The position numbers were made by a program, and so were the translations under genes. From Patescibacteria group bacterium (GTDB lineage Bacteria > Patescibacteriota > Minisyncoccia > Phycocordibacterales > DATDWN01), in contig JAZKAN010000006.1 of assembly GCA_040389125.1 (NCBI GenBank), forward strand, positions 1 through 50,010: DNA of 50,010 nucleotides, in the 5' to 3' direction. This document shows positions 13,976 to 44,946 of the stretch, one piece after another (positions within the stretch are counted from its first letter, which is position 1; each line of letters starts with the position of its first letter). Under the pieces are notes generated by a model, which saw only the letters and a program-made list of their open reading frames with translations, did not search any database and was not told the origin of the DNA.

Positions 13976-15040
13976 ATGTCTCAATTTTATAACGACTCTA
14001 TATTCTGGATTGATGTTGAAAAGATAAGCCCAAACCCGTTTCAACCGAGACGTGAGTTTGATGAGATGCAACTACAATCTCTCGCGGATTCTATACGTCA
14101 GTACGGAGTCCTACAGGCTCTTGTGGTGACTCGCAAGGAGGTTGAAAAAGACGACGGAGGACTCGCGGTGCAGTATGAGCTCATAGCAGGTGAGAGACGT
14201 TTGCGTGCGTCGAAACTGGCAGGACTGACACAGGTACCAGTTCTCATAAAAGTTGGTGACGAGGCAAACGACCTCATGAAACTCGAACTTGCAATTATCG
14301 AGAACATTCAGCGTGAGGATTTAAATCCGGTTGACCGTGCACGTGCGTTCGAGAGACTTTCAACAGAGTTTGGATTCAAACATATCGCCATTGCAGAAAA
14401 AGTGGGCAAAAGTCGTGAGTATGTTTCGAACACGCTTCGCCTCCTCATGCTTCCTCCAGAAATTCTCGATGCGCTCAGTCAGGGTAAAATATCCGAAGGA
14501 CATTCGAGGCCTCTCATGATGCTCAGCGATCGTCCTGACGAACAGAATACTGTGTTCAAGGAGATCATGTTCAAGAAACTTTCTGTACGCGAGACGGAAG
14601 CAATCGCGCGTCGTATTGCATATGACAAGATTCGCAAGAAGGGTGCAATTTTGGATCCGGAAACTCAGGAACTGGAGGAGAAACTAACAGAGACTCTTGG
14701 TACCCGTGTCTCTATTGAAAAACGTGAAAATGGTGGCAAGATTCTGATTGATTTCTTTTCTGCAGATGATCTTCGTGGAATTTTGGATCTTATTAAAACC
14801 AACAAAAAAGCATCATCTCCTACAGAAATGATGGATCGGCACATAGAGGCAAACCCGATTCCACCAGTCAACGGGTGGATACCCAACTATGCAGAGTCAA
14901 AACCGGAAATAGTCGAAATGAGTCTCGAAGATATTAAAAATGCAAATAAAAATGTGGACGATAGGTTGCCGGAGGAAATAAAAAAAGAGGAAAATACGGA
15001 TACGGATGAGATGTATTCGATCAAGAATTTCAGTATCTAA
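13976..15040 (+). CDS. parB: ParB/Spo0J partition protein with acidic C-terminal extension
   Basis: PNPFQPRREF, LIAGERRLRA, IIENIQREDLNP, GKSREYVSNTLRL. Confidence 0.93.
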   Translation: MSQFYNDSIFWIDVEKISPNPFQPRREFDEMQLQSLADSIRQYGVLQALVVTRKEVEKDDGGLAVQYELIAGERRLRASKLAGLTQVPVLIKVGDEANDLMKLELAIIENIQREDLNPVDRARAFERLSTEFGFKHIAIAEKVGKSREYVSNTLRLLMLPPEILDALSQGKISEGHSRPLMMLSDRPDEQNTVFKEIMFKKLSVRETEAIARRIAYDKIRKKGAILDPETQELEEKLTETLGTRVSIEKRENGGKILIDFFSADDLRGILDLIKTNKKASSPTEMMDRHIEANPIPPVNGWIPNYAESKPEIVEMSLEDIKNANKNVDDRLPEEIKKEENTDTDEMYSIKNFSI

Positions 15041-15178
15041 ATTTCAAATCTCGTTGAGTGCACTTGCTGTGTAGGCGCATCACGGAGTCCGTGTAGAGAC
15101 GAGTGCGAGGAAAATTTTCAGCAGAAAATTATTCCGGCGACTACACAGCAAGTGCCGAGAAAGAGATTTGAAATTTAG
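15037..15178 (+). repeat. Family-1 three-way-junction palindromic element, copy A
   Basis: 16-bp outer and 15-bp inner perfect stems around the 66-nt core 15075-15140. Confidence 0.9.
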
Positions 15179-16708
15179 TTACTTCTTCTCTTTCTCAAGA
15201 AAAGCACGAATGTGTCGTTTTGCCATTGTAGTTTTACAGTAGTCAATCCACTTGCGATTTGGCTTTGAGTTTTTCTTTGTATCAATCTCTACTCGATCAC
15301 CGTTTTTGAGTGTGGTGTAGATTGCCACAAACTTCCCATTAACTTTTGCTCCCACGACATGCAGCCCGATAACAGAGTGAACAGCAAATGCAAAATCAAT
15401 TACTGATGAATCAATGGGCAGATCGATCACATCACCTTTAGGAGTAAACACAAAAATTCTTTCTTCAAAAAAGTCTGTCTTTACCTCGTCGAGAAATTCA
15501 TCTTCCCCGATATCTTTTTGATATTCTACAAGTTCCTTGACCCATTTTGGCACATCGTCGAGGTTCAGAGTTGATTTAATTTTTCCAGCATTTTCGTTCC
15601 AATTTTCAGTAACGGGTAGAATTTTCTTTACCCACAGCAAACTCGGGTTTGTTATTTTTTGTTTTTTTGGATTTTGCTGATTTTGTTTATATGAAATATG
15701 TGATGCAATACCATACTCTGCTTCTTGGGACATCTCCGGAGTTTTTATTTGCACCTCGATTATTCCACCGTCACCAGTAAAAATCGTGGTATGCAGAGAC
15801 TGATAGCCGTTTGGTTTTGGAAAAGCAATATAGTCTTTGATGCGACCAGGTAGCGGTCGCCAGTTACTATGAATAATTCCAAGTACACGGTAGCAGTCAG
15901 CGACAGTTGGTACGATAACGCGGAGTGCAGATATGTCATGTACTTTGTCGATATCTTTTCTCTGTAGTTTTTTGTACAGACTATACAATCCCTTGAGGCG
16001 ATATTCTGTTTTAAAATTCGTCACCTCATTTTTTGCAAGTTCTTTTTTGAGAGTTTTTGTAAATTTTTCAAGAGCTTCTATTTCTGCACCTTGTCTCTGT
16101 TTTACCAGATTTGCCACTTCTGCATACTCTTTTGGAAGCACGAATTTGAACGCGAGATCCTCGAGCTCACGATTGAGTTTTCTGATTCCGAGGCGGTAGG
16201 CGATAGGTGCATAGATTTCGAGTGTCTCTGTCGCAATGCGCAGTTGCTTCTCGACCGGCACATACTCGAGCGTTTGCATATTGTGTAGACGATCACAGAG
16301 TTTGATAATGAGCACACGAATATCCTGCGACATTGCCACAAAAAGTTTACGGAGACTTTCCGTATGGTGTTTACCCGTACCACGATACTTTATTTTTCCA
16401 AGCTTGGTCACTCCCTCGACAAGAAACCGAATTTCCTTGCCAAACTCCTTTTCAATTTCCTCGGCAGAAACAGGCACATCTTCAATAGTGTCATGTAGGA
16501 ACCCTGCAGAAATAGTCGTCGCACCCATACCAAGATCCGCAAGATTTTTGGCAGTAGCAAAAAGATGATTGAAATACGGCTCGCCACTTTTTCTTTTTTG
16601 CTCCCCATGCGCCTTGGCAGCAAAATCATACGCCTTGCGTACTAATGCCATATCGCTATCCGTCGGATTGTGGAGTAATGAGATTATCTGTTGAATATCG
16701 TTTGCCAT
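15179..16708 (-). CDS. RelA/SpoT (p)ppGpp synthetase/hydrolase (HD-SYNTH-TGS)
   Basis: QKRKSGEPYFNH, LHDTIED, IKLCDRLHNM, KPNGYQSLHT, VFTPKGDV; probable start MANDI (TATAAT 6 nt upstream). Confidence 0.93.
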   Translation of the reverse strand: MANDIQQIISLLHNPTDSDMALVRKAYDFAAKAHGEQKRKSGEPYFNHLFATAKNLADLGMGATTISAGFLHDTIEDVPVSAEEIEKEFGKEIRFLVEGVTKLGKIKYRGTGKHHTESLRKLFVAMSQDIRVLIIKLCDRLHNMQTLEYVPVEKQLRIATETLEIYAPIAYRLGIRKLNRELEDLAFKFVLPKEYAEVANLVKQRQGAEIEALEKFTKTLKKELAKNEVTNFKTEYRLKGLYSLYKKLQRKDIDKVHDISALRVIVPTVADCYRVLGIIHSNWRPLPGRIKDYIAFPKPNGYQSLHTTIFTGDGGIIEVQIKTPEMSQEAEYGIASHISYKQNQQNPKKQKITNPSLLWVKKILPVTENWNENAGKIKSTLNLDDVPKWVKELVEYQKDIGEDEFLDEVKTDFFEERIFVFTPKGDVIDLPIDSSVIDFAFAVHSVIGLHVVGAKVNGKFVAIYTTLKNGDRVEIDTKKNSKPNRKWIDYCKTTMAKRHIRAFLEKEKK

Positions 16709-16748
16709 ATTCTGATTATACATACAAAGTGGTTGTTTGGAGAGGGGA

Positions 16749-16777
16749 TTGACAAACGACTCCAATGGGTGTATAAT
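16749..16777 (+). promoter_or_regulatory. Consensus sigma70 promoter of ORFan 16802
   Basis: TTGACA-17 nt-TATAAT, then AGGAG. Confidence 0.8.
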
Positions 16778-16801
16778 ACCATATAGGAGAGTACTCTACA
16801 C

Positions 16802-17134
16802 ATGACAAGCGAATCGAAAAGGATTTTTGTTATTTGTGCAGTTTTTGGTAGTCTTATCGGATTCTGTGCGACAAAAATGTTTGCGTATCAGCTGGAGATT
16901 TCCGGCTATCGCACACAAATTCAAGAAGTTTGTCGTACCTTCGAAGAAGTATCCGACTGGGTTCCTGCTGGAAAGCAGGAGGTCAAAATCTCATGCATTG
17001 ACAGTTCGTCCAGAAACGAGATTGTAATCCGTCTTTGGGGTGTAGATCACAACCAACCGATAATTGGGTATGTGATTGAAAGGGATGGGCGTAGGGAACC
17101 ATTCAAATCCCTGGACTTTCAATTGAAGAAGTAA
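16802..17134 (+). CDS. Hypothetical exported/membrane-anchored small protein
   Basis: N-terminal hydrophobic helix; own promoter, SD and hairpin terminator (~17138-17175). Confidence 0.65.
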   Translation: MTSESKRIFVICAVFGSLIGFCATKMFAYQLEISGYRTQIQEVCRTFEEVSDWVPAGKQEVKISCIDSSSRNEIVIRLWGVDHNQPIIGYVIERDGRREPFKSLDFQLKK

Positions 17135-17209
17135 TTTTCCCGCCAGCACGGCAGAAAGACTGTCGCTCGGCGGGATTTCTGTTTACAAATTTAAATAATA
17201 GAATCACCA

Positions 17210-17378
17210 CTAAACAAATTTCACTCATACATTTTCAGAGCATCCGCAGACCTTGAGCATGGTTTTGTCAAAGTCCCGAGTATTCTCGGGTTCATTGACA
17301 AATCAAGGTCGAGGACCGAAAAAACCTTTCGCAGGAAAGGTTTTTGTCTCTGAAAATGTATGAGTGAAATTTGTTTAG
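17210..17378 (+). repeat. Family-2 three-way-junction palindromic element, copy D
   Basis: 31-bp perfect terminal IR enclosing CATCCGCA-[stem]-GAGGACCGAA-[stem, GCAG loop]-TGT. Confidence 0.9.
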
Positions 17379-17381
17379 GAG

Positions 17382-19646
17382 TTACTCAGCTTTCTTTTTC
17401 TTTGCGAACCCTCGCTTCTTTTTCTCCTGTGCAAAAATCTCGAGAGCACGAGGAAGTTCGATCGTATACACATCATCATCCTTGAGTGATCGGAAATCCT
17501 TTTGATGTACAACATACGGACCAAACATTCCAATATTCGCAGTTATCTTTTCTCCCGTATCCGGATGAACACCCAGCACACGAGGCAAAGTCAAATACTT
17601 GAGCGCATCCTGTAGCGTAATCGTCTCCGGATCCTTGCCCTTTGGCACACTCGCCATTTTTGGCTTTGGTAGTTTTACTGCTTTTGGCTTTTTGATTTTC
17701 TTTCCGTTTTCATCAAACTCGGGTACAGCTTTTGCAGATGACTTTTTCGGCATTTCACCGAGCTGTACATACGGACCATATCTGCCGATGAGCACAAAAA
17801 TAGGCAGTCCCGTTTCCGGATCAATTCCGACTGGTTCATCTTTTTTAATTTCCTTGCCTTCCATGGTTAGTGCTCCCTCGCAGTCTGGATATCGAGCGCA
17901 TGATAGAAATTTACCACCACGAGAAAGCTTAATAATCATTTTGCCACCACACACAGGGCATTTGAATTTTGGATCAGCATCACCAAGGTTTGTGACCTTG
18001 TCCATTTTCTCTTTGCTTTTGACCTCGGCAAGAAATGGCTTGTAAAACGTCTTGAGCATTTTTGCATATTCCTCTTTGCCTTCTGCGATAAGGTCGAGAC
18101 GGTCTTCCATGTCGGCAGTAAAACTGTCACTGATATATCCGCCGAAATTGGCTTCGAGAAAACTAGACACAACATCTCCGGTGTCAGTAGGCACAAGTGC
18201 CTTGTTTATTTTCTCGACATATCCACGGTCCTCGATTGTTTTAATAATTGAGGCGTATGTCGATGGACGACCAATGCCACGTTTTTCGAGTTCCTTTACG
18301 AGACCTGCCTCAGAATATCGTGTCGGTGGTTCGGTATGTTTTTCCTCGGTTAAAACTTTTTGTAAATCCAAATCTTCTCCCACAGTAACTGGTGGGAGTT
18401 CAACATCCTCGCCACGCGATGGGGGATCTCCGAGAAGCCAGCCGGGAGAAGTGATGCGAGAACCTGTAATAGAAAAGTCAGGAATTTCTTCACCAGGTTT
18501 TGCGTCTTTAATGTTCGCAGTAATTTTCGTACGCAAGGTCTGTGCATCTTTCATCTGTGAACTGACCGCACGTCGCCAGATGAGTGTGTAGAGTTTCTGT
18601 TGCTCATCATTCAGTCCCGCCTTCTCCACATCAAAATGTGTTGGACGTATTGCCTCGTGTGCCTCCTGTGCATTTTTGCTTTTTGCTGAATACGTTCTGA
18701 TCTGCACGTATTCCTTTCCAAATTTCTTCTCGATGACTTGTGTGATCTGACTGAGCGCCATTTGACTGAGGTTCGTTGAGTCAGTACGCATGTATGTAAT
18801 ATGTCCTGCCTCGTATAGTCGCTGTGCAATACCCATCGTACGAGATGGCGCAAACCCGAGTCGTGATGAGGCTGACTGTTGTAGAGTAGAAGTAATAAAC
18901 GGTGCACGTGGAGTTTTCTTTACATCGGATTCTTTTACATCTTTGACTATCCAGGATCCCTTCTCGGCAATAGTCACAATTCGATCCACACTTTTCTGGT
19001 CGAGTGGCTCTTCCTCGCAGATCACTGTAAATGGTACTTTTTTGCTACTCTCTACCTCTGCAGAAATAACCCAAAATGAGTGTGAAATAAATGCACGAAT
19101 TTCTCTTTCGCGTTCCATGACAATGCGGAGTGCGGGTGATTGCACACGACCCGCAGAGAGTCCGTAACGAACTTTTTTCCAGATCAGTCCCGAGAGGTCG
19201 TATCCCACCAGTCTGTCGAGCACACGACGTGCTTCCTGTGCTTGTTTCAGGTTGTCATCAATGTCTCGCGGATGTTGTATTGCCTCTGTCACGGCTTCTT
19301 TTGTGATTTCATGAAATACAACACGCTGTGGGTGTTTGAGTCCGATTGCGTCCGCAATGTGCCACGCGATTGCCTCGCCCTCGCGGTCGGGGTCAGTTGC
19401 AAGTAATACCACACTTGATTCCTTTGCGAGTGATTTTATTTCTGCTACCACTTTTTCCTTGCCCTTGGATATTTCATAGTGAGGCACGAAACCTGCTTCA
19501 ATATCAATTGCTGCTTTGTTTGATTTTGGCAAATCACGAACATGACCCACAGATGCGACCACGGTGTATTCACCATTCAAATATTTTGAAATTGTTTTTG
19601 CTTTTGCGGGGGACTCGACGATGAGTAGTTTCATCTTTTTATTCAT
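17382..19646 (-). CDS. topA: DNA topoisomerase I
   Basis: LIVESPAKAKTI, ATDPDREGEAI, SAGRVQS, ITYMRTDS, GIGRPSTYA; zinc ribbon and Topo_C repeats; probable start MNKKMK. Confidence 0.96.
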   Translation of the reverse strand: MNKKMKLLIVESPAKAKTISKYLNGEYTVVASVGHVRDLPKSNKAAIDIEAGFVPHYEISKGKEKVVAEIKSLAKESSVVLLATDPDREGEAIAWHIADAIGLKHPQRVVFHEITKEAVTEAIQHPRDIDDNLKQAQEARRVLDRLVGYDLSGLIWKKVRYGLSAGRVQSPALRIVMEREREIRAFISHSFWVISAEVESSKKVPFTVICEEEPLDQKSVDRIVTIAEKGSWIVKDVKESDVKKTPRAPFITSTLQQSASSRLGFAPSRTMGIAQRLYEAGHITYMRTDSTNLSQMALSQITQVIEKKFGKEYVQIRTYSAKSKNAQEAHEAIRPTHFDVEKAGLNDEQQKLYTLIWRRAVSSQMKDAQTLRTKITANIKDAKPGEEIPDFSITGSRITSPGWLLGDPPSRGEDVELPPVTVGEDLDLQKVLTEEKHTEPPTRYSEAGLVKELEKRGIGRPSTYASIIKTIEDRGYVEKINKALVPTDTGDVVSSFLEANFGGYISDSFTADMEDRLDLIAEGKEEYAKMLKTFYKPFLAEVKSKEKMDKVTNLGDADPKFKCPVCGGKMIIKLSRGGKFLSCARYPDCEGALTMEGKEIKKDEPVGIDPETGLPIFVLIGRYGPYVQLGEMPKKSSAKAVPEFDENGKKIKKPKAVKLPKPKMASVPKGKDPETITLQDALKYLTLPRVLGVHPDTGEKITANIGMFGPYVVHQKDFRSLKDDDVYTIELPRALEIFAQEKKKRGFAKKKKAE

Positions 19647-19680
19647 GCTGTTGATTATTACTGTAAAAAATATTTTTTGC

Positions 19681-19817
19681 AAATCAAAAAAACTCTTTCT
19701 CGTCATATGTTTTCTGTCGCCGGAATAATTTTCTGCTGAAAATTTTCCTCGCACTCGCGTCTTCACGCGCTCCGTGATGCGCCAGAAAACATATGACTTC
19801 GACGAGTTTTTTGATTT
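19681..19817 (-). repeat. Family-1 element, copy B
   Basis: Same 66-nt core on the minus strand; different 15-bp inner stem GTCATATGTTTTCTG/CAGAAAACATATGAC. Confidence 0.9.
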
Positions 19818-19889
19818 CCACAGATGACGTCGGTTGGGGGATTTGACAAAAAGGGTAAATAGGAGTTCAATTAAATGAGGAGATGACAT

Positions 19890-20078
19890 ATGGCTACGGC
19901 CACAAAAACCGCATTACAAAACGGCAACACCAAGTATTGCACAACTCAGTGCAATACCTTCGTTACCGCCGGCGATCCTGACAAGATCGAGTACAATGGA
20001 TCCCGCTTTCATCGGGGATGCCTTGTCAAGACAAATGAGGGAAAGGAGATACTGGCTCTGGTGTGTAAGCGTAAATAG
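19890..20078 (+). CDS. Small Cys/His-containing hypothetical protein
   Basis: GAGGAG SD; TTGACA-17-TTCAAT promoter 19843-19871; CTTQC...FHRGC; hairpin 20099-20125. Confidence 0.6.
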   Translation: MATATKTALQNGNTKYCTTQCNTFVTAGDPDKIEYNGSRFHRGCLVKTNEGKEILALVCKRK

Positions 20079-20161
20079 GAGCCAATTTTGATTTGAAGAA
20101 GGCGCCCCCGATGTGGTGGCGCCTTTAGTGTTTACAAAATATTTTCAAAACTTTGGAAATA

Positions 20162-21028
20162 TTACTTTAAGTGGATTTCTCCCATGACTTCCTCAATCAG
20201 TCCCTTTATTTCCATGGTGGCGAGTATCGTCTGCGTTACATACACAGGCTTGCCGAGTTCGCGAATTATCGCATCACGGGAAAGGGGTTCTCGGAGAATG
20301 TTGATTACTTCGTGTTCATCAGTCGAGCAGTCACTGTAGTCTCGTGATTCAAACAAATCGTCATGTGGTCGTAGTCCGAGCGCGCTCACGATATCACTTG
20401 ACTGTGTGATCGGTGTTGCACCAAGTCGGAGTAGCATGTGAGGACCTTCGGATGTTTTAGAAAAAATAGAGTGGGGAACAGTGAACACATCGCGATTGTA
20501 TTCAATTGCGTATTTAGAAGTGATGAGTGTGCCAGATTTTAATTCTGCCTCGATCACAAGTGTCGCGTGTGACATGCCCGCAATGATGCGATTGCGTTGT
20601 GGAAAGTTTGAAGGATATGACGGTTCCTTATCAGGAAACTCAGATAGGAGTGTCCCGCCACTTTCCACTATTTCTTCGGCAAGTCCTCTATGTTGTGCGG
20701 GGTAGAGGAATTTAGGATCGAGACCAGATCCAGGAATCGCGACCGTACGTAACCCGGCATTTAGTGCCGCTCGGTGAGCTATGGAGTCGATTCCGAGTGC
20801 CAGTCCCGATACAATCACGATCGGGTATCCACGCAGACCCTCGATCAATTTTTCACATACTGCCTTGCCGTACTCACTGTATTTGCGCGCGCCGACGACA
20901 GCCAGGTATTTTATTTCGTCACTGTCCCGATCTGGCAACTCACCCACAATTCGCATTTCTTTTGGCGGATCATTTATTTCAAGGAGTAGTTTGGGAAAGT
21001 CCTTTTTATGCAGAGTCTCTATCTTCAT
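20162..21028 (-). CDS. dprA: DNA-processing protein DprA/Smf
   Basis: AVVGARK, VSGLALGIDSIAH, FPQRNRIIAG, KSGTLIT; upstream of topA. Confidence 0.95.
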   Translation of the reverse strand: MKIETLHKKDFPKLLLEINDPPKEMRIVGELPDRDSDEIKYLAVVGARKYSEYGKAVCEKLIEGLRGYPIVIVSGLALGIDSIAHRAALNAGLRTVAIPGSGLDPKFLYPAQHRGLAEEIVESGGTLLSEFPDKEPSYPSNFPQRNRIIAGMSHATLVIEAELKSGTLITSKYAIEYNRDVFTVPHSIFSKTSEGPHMLLRLGATPITQSSDIVSALGLRPHDDLFESRDYSDCSTDEHEVINILREPLSRDAIIRELGKPVYVTQTILATMEIKGLIEEVMGEIHLK

Positions 21029-21130
21029 ATATATAGTATAGCAGAGGATTCTGAAACAATTACAATATATTTAGACTAGATAAATCCCGCAGTTTTCATA
21101 TTTCCAACTTTGGTATACTATATACATACT

Positions 21131-22411
21131 ATGTTAGATATTAAATTCATTCGGGAAAACAAAGACTTGGTGGCACTTGGTGCAAAGAAAAAGCACATCG
21201 AGTTTGATGTAGACGCACTCATTACTACCGATGACAAACGTCGCGAGCTTCTTGCAAGTATCGAGAAAAAGCGTGCAGAACAAAATGAGGTTAGTGAGAA
21301 AATTGTACGCACACAGGAGCAATCCGAAAAATCAGATATGATTTCAAAAATGCAGACACTAAAAGTAGAACTGCAAAAAGAAGAGGAAGAACTCAAAACC
21401 GTCATGCACGACTGGCAGATGCGCATGGTAACGGTCCCAAACATTCCCGATATGTCAGTGCCAGAGGGCAAGGATGATAGCGAAAATAAGGAAGTGAAAG
21501 TCTGGGGCGAGATTCCTAAATTTGATTTTACTCCACGGGATCACATTGAACTCATGACAAATCTCGGTATGCTTGATCTCGAACGTGGTACAAAAGTTGC
21601 GGGGTTTCGTGGATATTTTCTAACCGGAGACGGAGCGCGACTTCAGTTTGCCCTGTGGAATTTTGTGCAAGATTTTTTTAATAAAAAAGAAGGATTTAGA
21701 CCGATGATCGTGCCATCTCTCGTACGACGTGAGCCGTTTATGGGCACAGGCTATCTGCCACAGAGCGAGGAGGATTTGTATAAAACGCAGGACGGTGAAT
21801 ATCTCTCGGGTACAGCAGAGGTTGCAACCATGGCTTTCTATATGGACGAGGTTTTAGAGAAAAAAGATTTACCAATAAAAATGCTCGCATTTTCAAATGC
21901 GTTTCGACGCGAGGCGGGTAGTCATGGCAAAGATACAAAAGGAATTTTGCGTGTGCACGAGTTTTATAAATACGAGCAGGTGGTGCTGTGCGAGGCGTCC
22001 CATACGGAGTCTGTAAAATACCACGAGGAAATCCAGATGAATACTGAGGAACTAACACAGGCCCTCGAACTCCCATACCATGTCGTAGTAAACTGTGGCG
22101 GCGATTTGGGTCTCGGTCAAGTTAAAAAATACGACATCGAAGTATGGCTTCCATCCGAAGGTAAATACCGTGAGACAGGCTCTGCGTCATACTTTCATGA
22201 TTTCCAAACACGACGACTCAACATCCGCTATCGCGATGACGATGGTAAAATGAAATTTGTGCACTCGCTCAATAACACCGCACTCTCTGGTAGGCCGCTC
22301 ATTATGATTATCGAAAACTTCCAAAATGCCGACGGCTCGATTCGTATCCCAACCGCCTTGCAACCCTACATGGGAGGGCAAACCATCATCACCAAGCCCC
22401 AGTCAAACTAA
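21131..22411 (+). CDS. serS: Seryl-tRNA synthetase
   Basis: MLDIKFIREN, GTAEV, FRREAGSHG, RVHEFYKYEQ, VHSLNNTA. Confidence 0.97.
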   Translation: MLDIKFIRENKDLVALGAKKKHIEFDVDALITTDDKRRELLASIEKKRAEQNEVSEKIVRTQEQSEKSDMISKMQTLKVELQKEEEELKTVMHDWQMRMVTVPNIPDMSVPEGKDDSENKEVKVWGEIPKFDFTPRDHIELMTNLGMLDLERGTKVAGFRGYFLTGDGARLQFALWNFVQDFFNKKEGFRPMIVPSLVRREPFMGTGYLPQSEEDLYKTQDGEYLSGTAEVATMAFYMDEVLEKKDLPIKMLAFSNAFRREAGSHGKDTKGILRVHEFYKYEQVVLCEASHTESVKYHEEIQMNTEELTQALELPYHVVVNCGGDLGLGQVKKYDIEVWLPSEGKYRETGSASYFHDFQTRRLNIRYRDDDGKMKFVHSLNNTALSGRPLIMIIENFQNADGSIRIPTALQPYMGGQTIITKPQSN

Positions 22412-22412
22412 T

Positions 22413-22543
22413 AATTTTAATCTCGTTGAACAAAAGATTTTCTGGCGCATCACAGAGCGCGTGAAGACGCGAGTGCGAGGAAAATTTCTAGCAAGAAATT
22501 ATTCCGGCGACAGAAAATCTTTTGAGAATAAGAGATTAAAATT
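22413..22543 (+). repeat. Family-1 element, copy C
   Basis: Same core with compensatory AATTTCT-AGCA-AGAAATT hairpin; 14-bp inner and 12-bp outer stems. Confidence 0.9.
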
Positions 22544-22553
22544 TTAACATTCA

Positions 22554-23393
22554 ATGCCCAAATACTCATCACATCGCCAAGAAGAGTATATAAAGAAAAA
22601 ACACAAAAGACGACGAATCAAAGTCATTATTTTCTTCGTATTATTTTTTCTTTCCATTGGTTTTCTCATTTGGATTGCACATCGCCCGTCACTGCGTATT
22701 TCTGAAGTTGAACTCTCGGGTGGAGTACTCGTGACACAACAGGAAGTTTCTACAGAAGTCATACAATTTATTTCTGGTTCCTACATCTGGGTGTTTCCAA
22801 AAAATAACGCACTGCTCTACCCACAGAAAAAACTTGAGAAATATTTGAAGGATCATTTCAAACGTATCGATACAATTCATGTGGATACAAAAAATCTCCA
22901 CACCATGAGCGTGGAAATTTCTGAACGCAAATCTGAGGCACTGTGGTGTGGCGGTGTTCCAGGAGAAACAGAGGGTGAACAGGGACAGTGCTATTTTATG
23001 GATGCAAACAGCACAATTTTTGCAGAAGCACCGCAGTTTTCGGGTGATGCATATTTTAAATACTACGGATTGGTAACGACTGACTCACCCATTGGTTTAG
23101 AGTACATGGCGACGAGTACGGATTTTGCTGAACTTTCAAATTTCGTACAAAACGCTCGGAGATTACAAATAAAACCAGAATATGTTGTTGCAAAAGATAC
23201 AGGAGAATTTACTCTTGTTCTCGCTGGTGGTGGCAAAATTTATTTTGATAATAAAGAACCTCTGACTAAAGTGGCAGACAACCTCGAGGCTCTTCTGCGC
23301 ACCCCCGCACTAGTCCCGTCTACAAACGCTGATTTGCCGATCGATTATATTGATCTCAGATTTGGTAATAAATTGTTTTATAAACTGAAATAA
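22554..23393 (+). CDS. FtsQ/DivIB-like cell division protein
   Basis: Basic N-terminus, single TM helix, POTRA-like segment, VEISERK, C-terminal YIDLRFGNKLFYK. Confidence 0.8.
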   Translation: MPKYSSHRQEEYIKKKHKRRRIKVIIFFVLFFLSIGFLIWIAHRPSLRISEVELSGGVLVTQQEVSTEVIQFISGSYIWVFPKNNALLYPQKKLEKYLKDHFKRIDTIHVDTKNLHTMSVEISERKSEALWCGGVPGETEGEQGQCYFMDANSTIFAEAPQFSGDAYFKYYGLVTTDSPIGLEYMATSTDFAELSNFVQNARRLQIKPEYVVAKDTGEFTLVLAGGGKIYFDNKEPLTKVADNLEALLRTPALVPSTNADLPIDYIDLRFGNKLFYKLK

Positions 23394-44714: not shown

Positions 44715-44725
44715 TTCTTTCAAAT

Positions 44726-44946
44726 ACTAATTCTCTCACTAAGTTATTTTTGAGCACGCATAAAGTTTTGGTAAACTTTTGCTCTCGCTCGAAGATCAAG
44801 AAAACAATCAGCTCAATTCATAGCCTTCCCACAAACTCCTCGCTGAGTACAGCTTCGTCAAACAGTGCTCCAGGCTTATTTCATCTTCGTTGTTGTTTTC
44901 TAATCTTCTCCGCAGTCTCAAAAATAATTTAGATGAGAAAATTAGT
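44726..44946 (-). repeat. Divergent three-way-junction palindromic element, copy G
   Basis: ~29-bp imperfect terminal IR; long internal stem; minus-strand GCA-AAAGTTT-ACCA-AAACTTT-A-TGC hairpin mirrors the family-1 hairpin. Confidence 0.7.

Follow-up and report, generated by a model that had tools for sequence, protein, structure and literature searches.

The window analysed here is a stretch of 50,010 nt in contig C6 of the genome of a Patescibacteria group bacterium (G000; 526 kb in 8 contigs, 71% complete). Between housekeeping genes in this window lie copies of a hairpin of about 135 nt with a branched, conserved head, designated here as family 1. The genes parB (13976-15040, +) and relA/spoT (15179-16765, -) converge, and copy 1 fully occupies the spacer between their stop codons. 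Copy 2 was located in the spacer between dprA (20162-21028, -) and topA, 35 nt upstream of the true topA start, which Pfam analysis placed at 19646 (-). Copy 3 follows the serS stop codon (gene 21110-22411) and precedes the start codon of an FtsQ/DivIB-like gene (22554-23393).

Fold of the three copies in the window

The family layout consisted of an outer stem, an internal loop (GUYGA / GAGAAA), an inner stem of 14-15 bp and a core forming a three-way junction. The positions of the three copies and the parts of copy 1 were as follows.

15037-15178 (+): copy 1, whole hairpin, model score 150.7 bits
15037-15052 / 15163-15178 (+): copy 1, outer stem
15053-15059 / 15156-15162 (+): copy 1, internal loop, GUUGAGU / CGAGAAA
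15060-15074 / 15141-15155 (+): copy 1, inner stem, 15 bp
15075-15140 (+): copy 1, core, three-way junction
15075 and 15140: copy 1 core, G15075 opposite A15140
15076-78 / 15137-39: copy 1 core, P1 (CGC/GCG), followed by J1/2 (AU)
15081-83 / 15103-05: copy 1 core, P2a (CNC/GNG), then internal loop GGA / GA
15087-90 / 15096 + 15098-15100: copy 1 core, P2b, loop GUGUA, bulged A15097; J2/3 is CGA
15109-19 / 15124-30 + 15132-35: copy 1 core, P3, loop AGCA, bulged A15131; J3/1 is G15136
19681-19817 (-): copy 2, whole hairpin (core 19717-19782), model score 151.1 bits
22413-22543 (+): copy 3, whole hairpin (core 22445-22510), model score 158.4 bits

The first-pass annotation, made from the letters of the window, had reported three 66-nt cores at 15075-15140 (+), 19717-19782 (-) and 22445-22510 (+). 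These positions were exact to the base, and its outer limits, 15037 and 22543, proved to be the points where the outer stem of copy 1 begins and that of copy 3 ends. The features that it had described could all be found, namely the compensatory changes GUC/GAC versus GCG/CGC and UUUUC/GAAAA versus UUUCU/AGAAA with a bulged A, the copy-specific inner stem of 14-15 bp, the variable outer stem, and the conserved internal loop CUC-GUYGA ... GAGAAA-GAG, in which copy 3 carries AGAAUAA in place of the GAGAAA side. It had given three pairs to the small hairpin; this hairpin is closed by a fourth P2b pair and a further bulged A. In the family as a whole, P2b has four pairs, a five-letter loop (RUGWA) and a bulged A, and P3 has eleven pairs, a bulged A and the loop AGCA.

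The folding energies of copies 1, 2 and 3 were -66.1, -57.9 and -49.5 kcal/mol (z = -10.3, -7.5 and -7.2), and 0 of 200 shuffles folded as well. The complementary strands folded about equally well, because the copies are near-perfect palindromes. The core word CGAGTGCGAGGAAAATTT, with up to 2 mismatches allowed, occurred 13 times in the genome, and the reversed control word did not occur.

Covariation and conserved letters

In a MAFFT alignment of the 21 full copies of the genome, 91.8% of cells were paired versus 73.6% in shuffles, and 172 double-change cells were counted versus 56 after shuffling (0 of 500 shuffles as high). When the partner column was slid by 1-3 positions, pairing fell to 37-52%. 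RNAalifold, used unaided, showed double changes in 31 of 41 pairs. An alignment of 58 copies from 30 genomes, which was fitted to the model and thus leans towards structure, had 96.2% of cells paired versus 67.0% after shuffling, with changes on both sides in 42 of 44 pairs. The earlier proposal of compensatory changes in several helices was therefore upheld in both larger alignments.

Double changes in the 58-copy alignment affected all nine pairs of the outer stem; since the outer stem covaries, the folded molecule spans the whole unit. The four P2b pairs varied as GC/AU/CG, UA/CG/GC, GC/CG and CG/AU/UA. Many combinations of P2b and P3 variants were present among the 21 copies, which suggests exchange between copies.

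When the 35 best copies, drawn from many genomes, were reduced to a consensus, the unpaired letters were kept and the stem letters varied. The most conserved letters were those of the unpaired junction and loops, and the unpaired junction letters and the two bulged A were conserved across 30 genomes. G·U or U·G pairs numbered 43 overall, versus 19 A·C or C·A; in the two long stems the counts were 38 and 10, and in the core (1145 pairs) they were 5 and 7. The excess of G·U over A·C in the stems indicated that it is one defined strand, the modelled one, that folds, and not simply the duplex. Many of the copies in G009 keep the same G·U in the inner stem.

Copy number, distribution and related heads

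The first-pass annotation had three copies in view. The genome contained 34 model matches, comprising 21 full copies (118-158 bits), six elements that share the scaffold and carry other cores (41-77 bits), six reverse-strand echoes and one weak match, which lies within the window at 44716-44831. Counting G000, 45 of 61 genomes had matches to model R1, and the number per genome ranged from 0 to 43. Besides G000, the model was matched in 35 of the 36 others in the family and in 9 of 24 other families of the order, and at E <= 1e-6 it matched 10 of 150 further genomes of the class. Genomes with matches were about 0.4-1.2 Mb. A scan of viral contigs with the sequence pattern gave 0 matches.

No match to a known family was found in Rfam 15. 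At gathering scores the whole window yielded 7 tRNAs only, and none of the 6 matches obtained in 14900-22700 at E up to 10 overlapped a family copy. The first-pass annotation had named a match to a known family, or covariation unsupported in a larger alignment, as grounds for giving up the family; neither arose, because Rfam gave no match and the covariation was supported. A literature search on repeats of Patescibacteria, or the candidate phyla radiation (CPR), yielded only papers on TIGR-Tas, which concern tandem arrays and are unrelated, and general papers on repeats. Nothing in the literature searched describes a repeat of this type from the phylum, most subscription journals lying outside that search. 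Family 1 is a real, strongly supported and uncatalogued structured repeat.

The hammerhead, hairpin ribozyme, k-turn, Y RNA, 6S, the Alu domain of SRP, retrons and bridge RNA were set aside because the lengths of the junction strands or the context do not fit; the test applied to them was the Rfam search.

What the six elements with other cores retain is an outer stem, the CUCGUUGA...GAGAAAGAG loop and a long inner stem; their heads differ. One of them lies in the window:

17199-17389 (+): related element with a larger, different core, 191 nt, -93.3 kcal/mol, 54.5 bits, 5' flank CACCACUAA

It has a twin elsewhere in the genome at C2:45027-45219 (-). Two (plant) microRNA models matched this element at loose thresholds because it is a long hairpin only. 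Relatives carry versions of 180-200 nt with a larger branched domain in place of P2, and further versions with other small hairpins at the position of P2b. P3 and the adjoining GCAG/CGAG-type letters recur in all versions, which gives the heads the look of one junction that has diverged. A search for scaffolds without a core found none.

A conserved 5' extension, YACCACUNA, characterises one subfamily; it stands directly before the outer stem in 8 of 27 G000 elements (e.g. 17199-17215) and in 5 of 20 in G009. This motif appears single-stranded and is common to elements with different cores in different genera.

Genomic context and orientation

All 27 elements of the genome are intergenic, and their spacers are almost completely filled. 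The neighbours are housekeeping genes, including parB/relA, dprA-topA, serS, groES-groEL, L15-secY, dnaK, dnaB, uvrA, nusB, ftsX-pyrG and RNase J. Among the 21 family-1 copies, 10 were tandem and sense, 4 tandem and antisense, 3 convergent and 4 divergent. The 31 copies taken from 29 relatives gave 9 sense and 10 antisense in tandem contexts, with one more antisense call overlapping an open reading frame (ORF). By local GC skew, the G-rich strand carried 13 of the 27 elements and the C-rich strand 14, a small sample in which the direction of replication is taken from skew alone. The orientation bias relative to replication that marks the IS200/IS605 type of insertion sequence (IS) was thus not seen.

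The first-pass annotation had assigned convergent, divergent and tandem contexts to the three copies. All of these contexts occur in the genome, but copy 2 is tandem unless the 62-aa ORF at 19890-20078 (+) is real. That ORF is unsupported; it is preceded by a Shine-Dalgarno-like GGAGA and has no family match. It falls within about 340 nt between dprA and copy 2 (19823-20161) that have no assigned function. The further statement that the element is not a simple terminator or cis-leader agreed with its presence in every intergenic context and in both orientations, and with the 13 terminator-like calls, none of which overlaps any of the three window copies. The stems of these copies are A/U-rich, and no U-tract directly follows a G+C-rich stem.

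Contigs of the probable source DNA run ended at each element (15074/15141, 17239/17349, 19544/19755 and 22484/22488). No contig from 3 DNA runs was found to bridge an empty site.

Turnover of sites among relatives

Two of 30 genomes have a copy in the spacer 3' of serS; that of G030, the second genome, is longer (181 nt) and scores 58.1 versus 158.4 bits. The groES-groEL spacer was occupied in 4 of 30 genomes, belonging to four genera, with a sense copy in G000 (142 bits) and antisense copies in the other three (36-68 bits). The spacer adjoining trmD was occupied in G022 and G032, in opposite orientations. Between msrA and msrB, identified by Pfam, a copy was present in G028, where seven congeners (G072, G068, G064, G032, G065, G034 and G076) had only 5-29 nt. 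The msrA frame of G028 enters the element and ends at a stop codon inside the outer stem. Flanks of the filled site in G028 and of the empty sites in its congeners were only 70-76% identical, so the insertion junction was not fixed to the base. No case of an orthologous copy kept in two genomes was found.

Two pairs of copies in G000 were 95-96% identical along the hairpin at unrelated loci, while the median pair was 67% identical. In near-identical pairs, similarity ended at the hairpin tips.

At the trmD site of G022 (L045, about 1030-1500), some 470 nt beside the element are absent from congeners. Placed between a Pif1-like helicase gene and trmD, they contain a small ORF and, after it, a terminator-like hairpin rich in G+C.

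A proposed structure-dependent mobile repeat

On balance, and with the scales tipping only modestly, we read family 1 as a non-autonomous, structure-dependent mobile interspersed repeat, that is, as hairpin "replicators" that have spread through the intergenic spacers of this small-genome, CPR-type lineage and are still turning over. This behaviour and the scaffold shared with other cores go beyond what the first-pass annotation had proposed. A mobile repeat was preferred to a gene-linked RNA because the sites are patchy, the orientation is random and copies 95-96% identical stand at unrelated loci. The direct observations are of structure, covariation, copy numbers, patchy occupancy, random orientation and missing target duplications; mobility as such we infer.

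The selected feature would be the fold of one defined strand. Two long stems of free sequence would carry the conserved internal loop and be topped by the conserved three-way junction, and junction and loops together may form the recognition module of a putative trans-acting enzyme. The stems would need only to pair, so that lineages of copies could drift by paired changes. The folded molecule may be single-stranded or extruded DNA rather than RNA, a choice made by a slight lean. We lean to DNA because an RNA would start outside the unit, where the flanks show no relationship to each other, and because close to half of the tandem copies run antisense to their neighbours.

Several results weigh against the mobile repeat. 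Target-site duplication was not detected in 47 copies, in which the best direct repeat had a mean of 2.28 nt versus 2.21 +/- 0.20 in controls with mismatched flanks. No exact pair of empty and filled sites at high identity was found, and the ends of the mobile unit are accordingly not defined. Among the G009 copies (L129-L148), the inner two thirds, with core, loop and inner stem, are nearly the same, but the distal outer stems differ from copy to copy and are still self-complementary; simple copying of a fixed unit does not account for this. The conservation of the 66-nt core, with about 25 fixed unpaired letters, has the look of a functional RNA, and a host function would likewise be compatible with its occurrence in 35 of the 36 family genomes.

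The search for a mobilising enzyme or transposase of the element, which found none, belongs with these points. Y1_Tnp (PF01797) had 0 matches in G000, and across the 61 genomes its matches were unrelated to element counts: it was absent from G002, G016, G028 and G029, which carry 12-28 element matches, and had 3-4 matches in G046, G056 and G059, which carry no element. RVT_1 and the TnpB-type domain were not found in G000. No element stood beside Y1 genes (4 loci), Xer-like genes or rve genes. The only IS found in G000, in a search of this 71% complete genome, was contig C8 (1059 bp), which has an rve-type transposase and imperfect terminal inverted repeats and probably collapsed from several copies. 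It had no similarity to the element beyond chance words of 7-13 nt and no common ends. A split, autonomous version with an internal gene and solo halves was searched for in G000 and none was found; one truncated relic lies near C2:15483-15537.

In 34 of 61 genomes, G000 included, there are multi-copy ORFs of about 220-250 aa (e.g. in G009, G053, G046 and G056) whose match to the Y1_Tnp profile is confined to its C-terminal two thirds; they too were unrelated to element counts.

Alternative explanations

The strongest competitor, which we regard as possible though unlikely, is a multi-copy functional structured RNA, either a cis-acting mRNA module for processing or stability (e.g. for RNase III or a different structure-specific RNase) or a trans-acting, protein-binding small RNA. 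Its three-way junction would bind a protein or ligand or be catalytic, and its copies would be kept for the benefit of the host. The very strong covariation, the conserved unpaired letters and the near-universal presence in the family speak for it, as do the excess of G·U over A·C on the modelled strand, the 10 of 14 tandem G000 copies that are sense, and the copies within operons (groES-groEL, dprA-topA and ftsX-pyrG), which would be co-transcribed. However, sense and antisense are evenly split in the tandem contexts of relatives, the sites are not orthologously conserved, and the unrelated flanks contain no conserved upstream promoter. A promoter inside the element could not yield a covarying outer stem, G·U is scarce in the core, and no Rfam family matches.

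It is rather unlikely, in our estimate, that family 1 represents a new class of structure-coded mobile element, in which a three-way-junction head exchangeable within one scaffold would be moved or copied as a folded single strand, without a dedicated transposase gene, duplex-bound terminal repeats or target duplication. Such an element might use a housekeeping enzyme, such as a Xer-like recombinase or the competence and single-stranded DNA (ssDNA) machinery. Alternatively, the junction itself could be a new catalytic or protein-recruiting nucleic-acid motif.

We consider it improbable that the copies are folded ssDNA sites for host enzymes, whether attC-like sites for Xer-like recombinases or single-strand priming or initiation signals. 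Fixed structure and bulged bases, free stems and a strand preference, as in known systems, are in line with this explanation, and the orientation is independent of transcription. G000 also encodes two Xer-like tyrosine recombinases, but these score 55-66 bits, far below the integron-integrase cut-off of 265 bits, and neither is adjoined by an element. Moreover, no arrays or cassettes were present, the positions are not conserved between genomes, and a lagging-strand priming site should show a bias that the GC-skew counts lack.

Ordinary terminators or chance palindromes, with compensatory changes arising by template-switch "hairpin correction" without selection, are largely refuted and hardly credible: copy 1 fills its convergent spacer exactly and the hairpins are near-perfect with few G·U, as template switching would produce, but the window copies have neither terminator-like calls nor a U-tract after a G+C-rich stem, 4 of 21 copies stand in divergent spacers and one between groES and groEL, G·U and A·C are asymmetric, and template switching would erase the junction letters and two bulged A that are conserved in 30 genomes.

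Comparison with known repeats

The mobile interspersed repeat favoured here was compared with known systems. In the part of the source available, bcr1 of the Bacillus cereus group is described as a repeat of about 155 bp with a non-conserved distribution and compensatory changes that keep a long fold; it has 5-bp direct repeats at its flanks and is transcribed (PMC3184786). Family 1 resembles it in being a non-coding repeat of about 150 bp, in its patchy distribution among relatives and its compensatory changes. Unlike bcr1, it has no direct repeats at the tips (47 copies), and a three-way junction core and a single scaffold with several cores are not described for bcr1 in that part of the source.

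REPINs, according to the portions available, are short intergenic hairpin repeats that are non-autonomous, multi-copy, persistent in lineages and population-like, without classical target duplication; they are doublets of short repetitive extragenic palindromic (REP) sequences and depend on a single-copy Y1 gene (RAYT) flanked by REPs (PMC3116915, PMC3337134). The likeness covers short intergenic hairpins, non-autonomy, many copies, persistence in a lineage, population-like behaviour and no target duplication. It ends at the branched core and at the enzyme: neither G000 nor many of the element-rich relatives yielded Y1_Tnp, and the Y1 genes present are not flanked by the element.

Correia, ERIC and RUP are examples of miniature inverted-repeat transposable elements (MITEs). 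To our knowledge, the interiors of MITEs are normally without helix-by-helix covariation. The source consulted here defines a MITE by its target-site duplications and by terminal inverted repeats that correspond to those of an IS (PMC3184786). Family 1 is like them in being shorter than 200 bp and without an ORF, in forming a long stem-loop, in lying in intergenic spacers in both orientations and in a distribution that varies between relatives; neither target-site duplication nor IS-matching terminal inverted repeats were found here.

The attC sites of integrons are recognised as folded single strands. Their stems are free in sequence; what is conserved is the structure, with extrahelical bases and an unpaired internal spacer. 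They stand in arrays behind gene cassettes beside the integron integrase. By this general description, family 1 shares conserved structure, unpaired internal letters and extrahelical bases with free stem sequence. In contrast to attC sites, its copies stand alone among housekeeping genes, and a search of G000 gave no integron integrase. The absence of terminator-like calls on the copies and their occurrence in divergent spacers likewise separate it from intrinsic terminators. By analogy, the element may work like the structured interspersed repeats of bacteria; the defining features of MITEs, the REPIN-RAYT system, attC sites and terminators were all absent from it.

Genomes of this lineage measure 0.5-0.9 Mb and are tightly packed, with spacers of about 5-30 nt at empty sites, and yet they carry 20-40 copies in which the fold, not the sequence, is conserved. 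If the element is a replicator, very reduced genomes of the symbiont type sustain long-lived selfish hairpins without a recognisable transposase, and the copies form a clean natural data set on how selection on structure only shapes sequence. If it is an RNA, an abundant and uncatalogued class of structured RNA exists in a major uncultured group. On either reading the repeats account for breaks in de Bruijn assemblies and for spurious ORF extensions such as that at copy 2, and a covariance model of the element would improve the annotation of such genomes.

Genes and minor features near the copies

The longest topA ORF, 17382-19889 (-), extends 243 nt upstream across copy 2. This 5' extension is spurious, the Toprim domain of the product that begins at 19646 starting from residue 7, and automatic gene calls may therefore swallow the element.

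Promoter-like sites in the scan numbered 12, versus 16.6 +/- 3.8 in shuffles. Weak hexamers (9/12) at 19683-19654 (-), over the 3' arm of copy 2, and at 22522-22550 (+), over that of copy 3, face topA and the FtsQ-like gene, respectively; as such sites are not more frequent than in shuffles, they were not taken as evidence. A perfect consensus promoter (TTGACA, 17 nt, TATAAT; 12/12) is present at 16749-16777 (+), 25 nt upstream of a 110-aa ORF (16802-17134) without a Pfam or NCBIfam family.

The Atlas clusters closest to one unexplained neighbouring protein are in Minisyncoccota, a hint in keeping with the CPR genomes named in the first-pass annotation. The protein encoded at 22554-23393 (+), downstream of copy 3, had no Pfam match; its nearest Atlas clusters carry POTRA_1 and FtsQ/DivIB domains, and the cell-division protein FtsQ of this lineage is probably encoded here.

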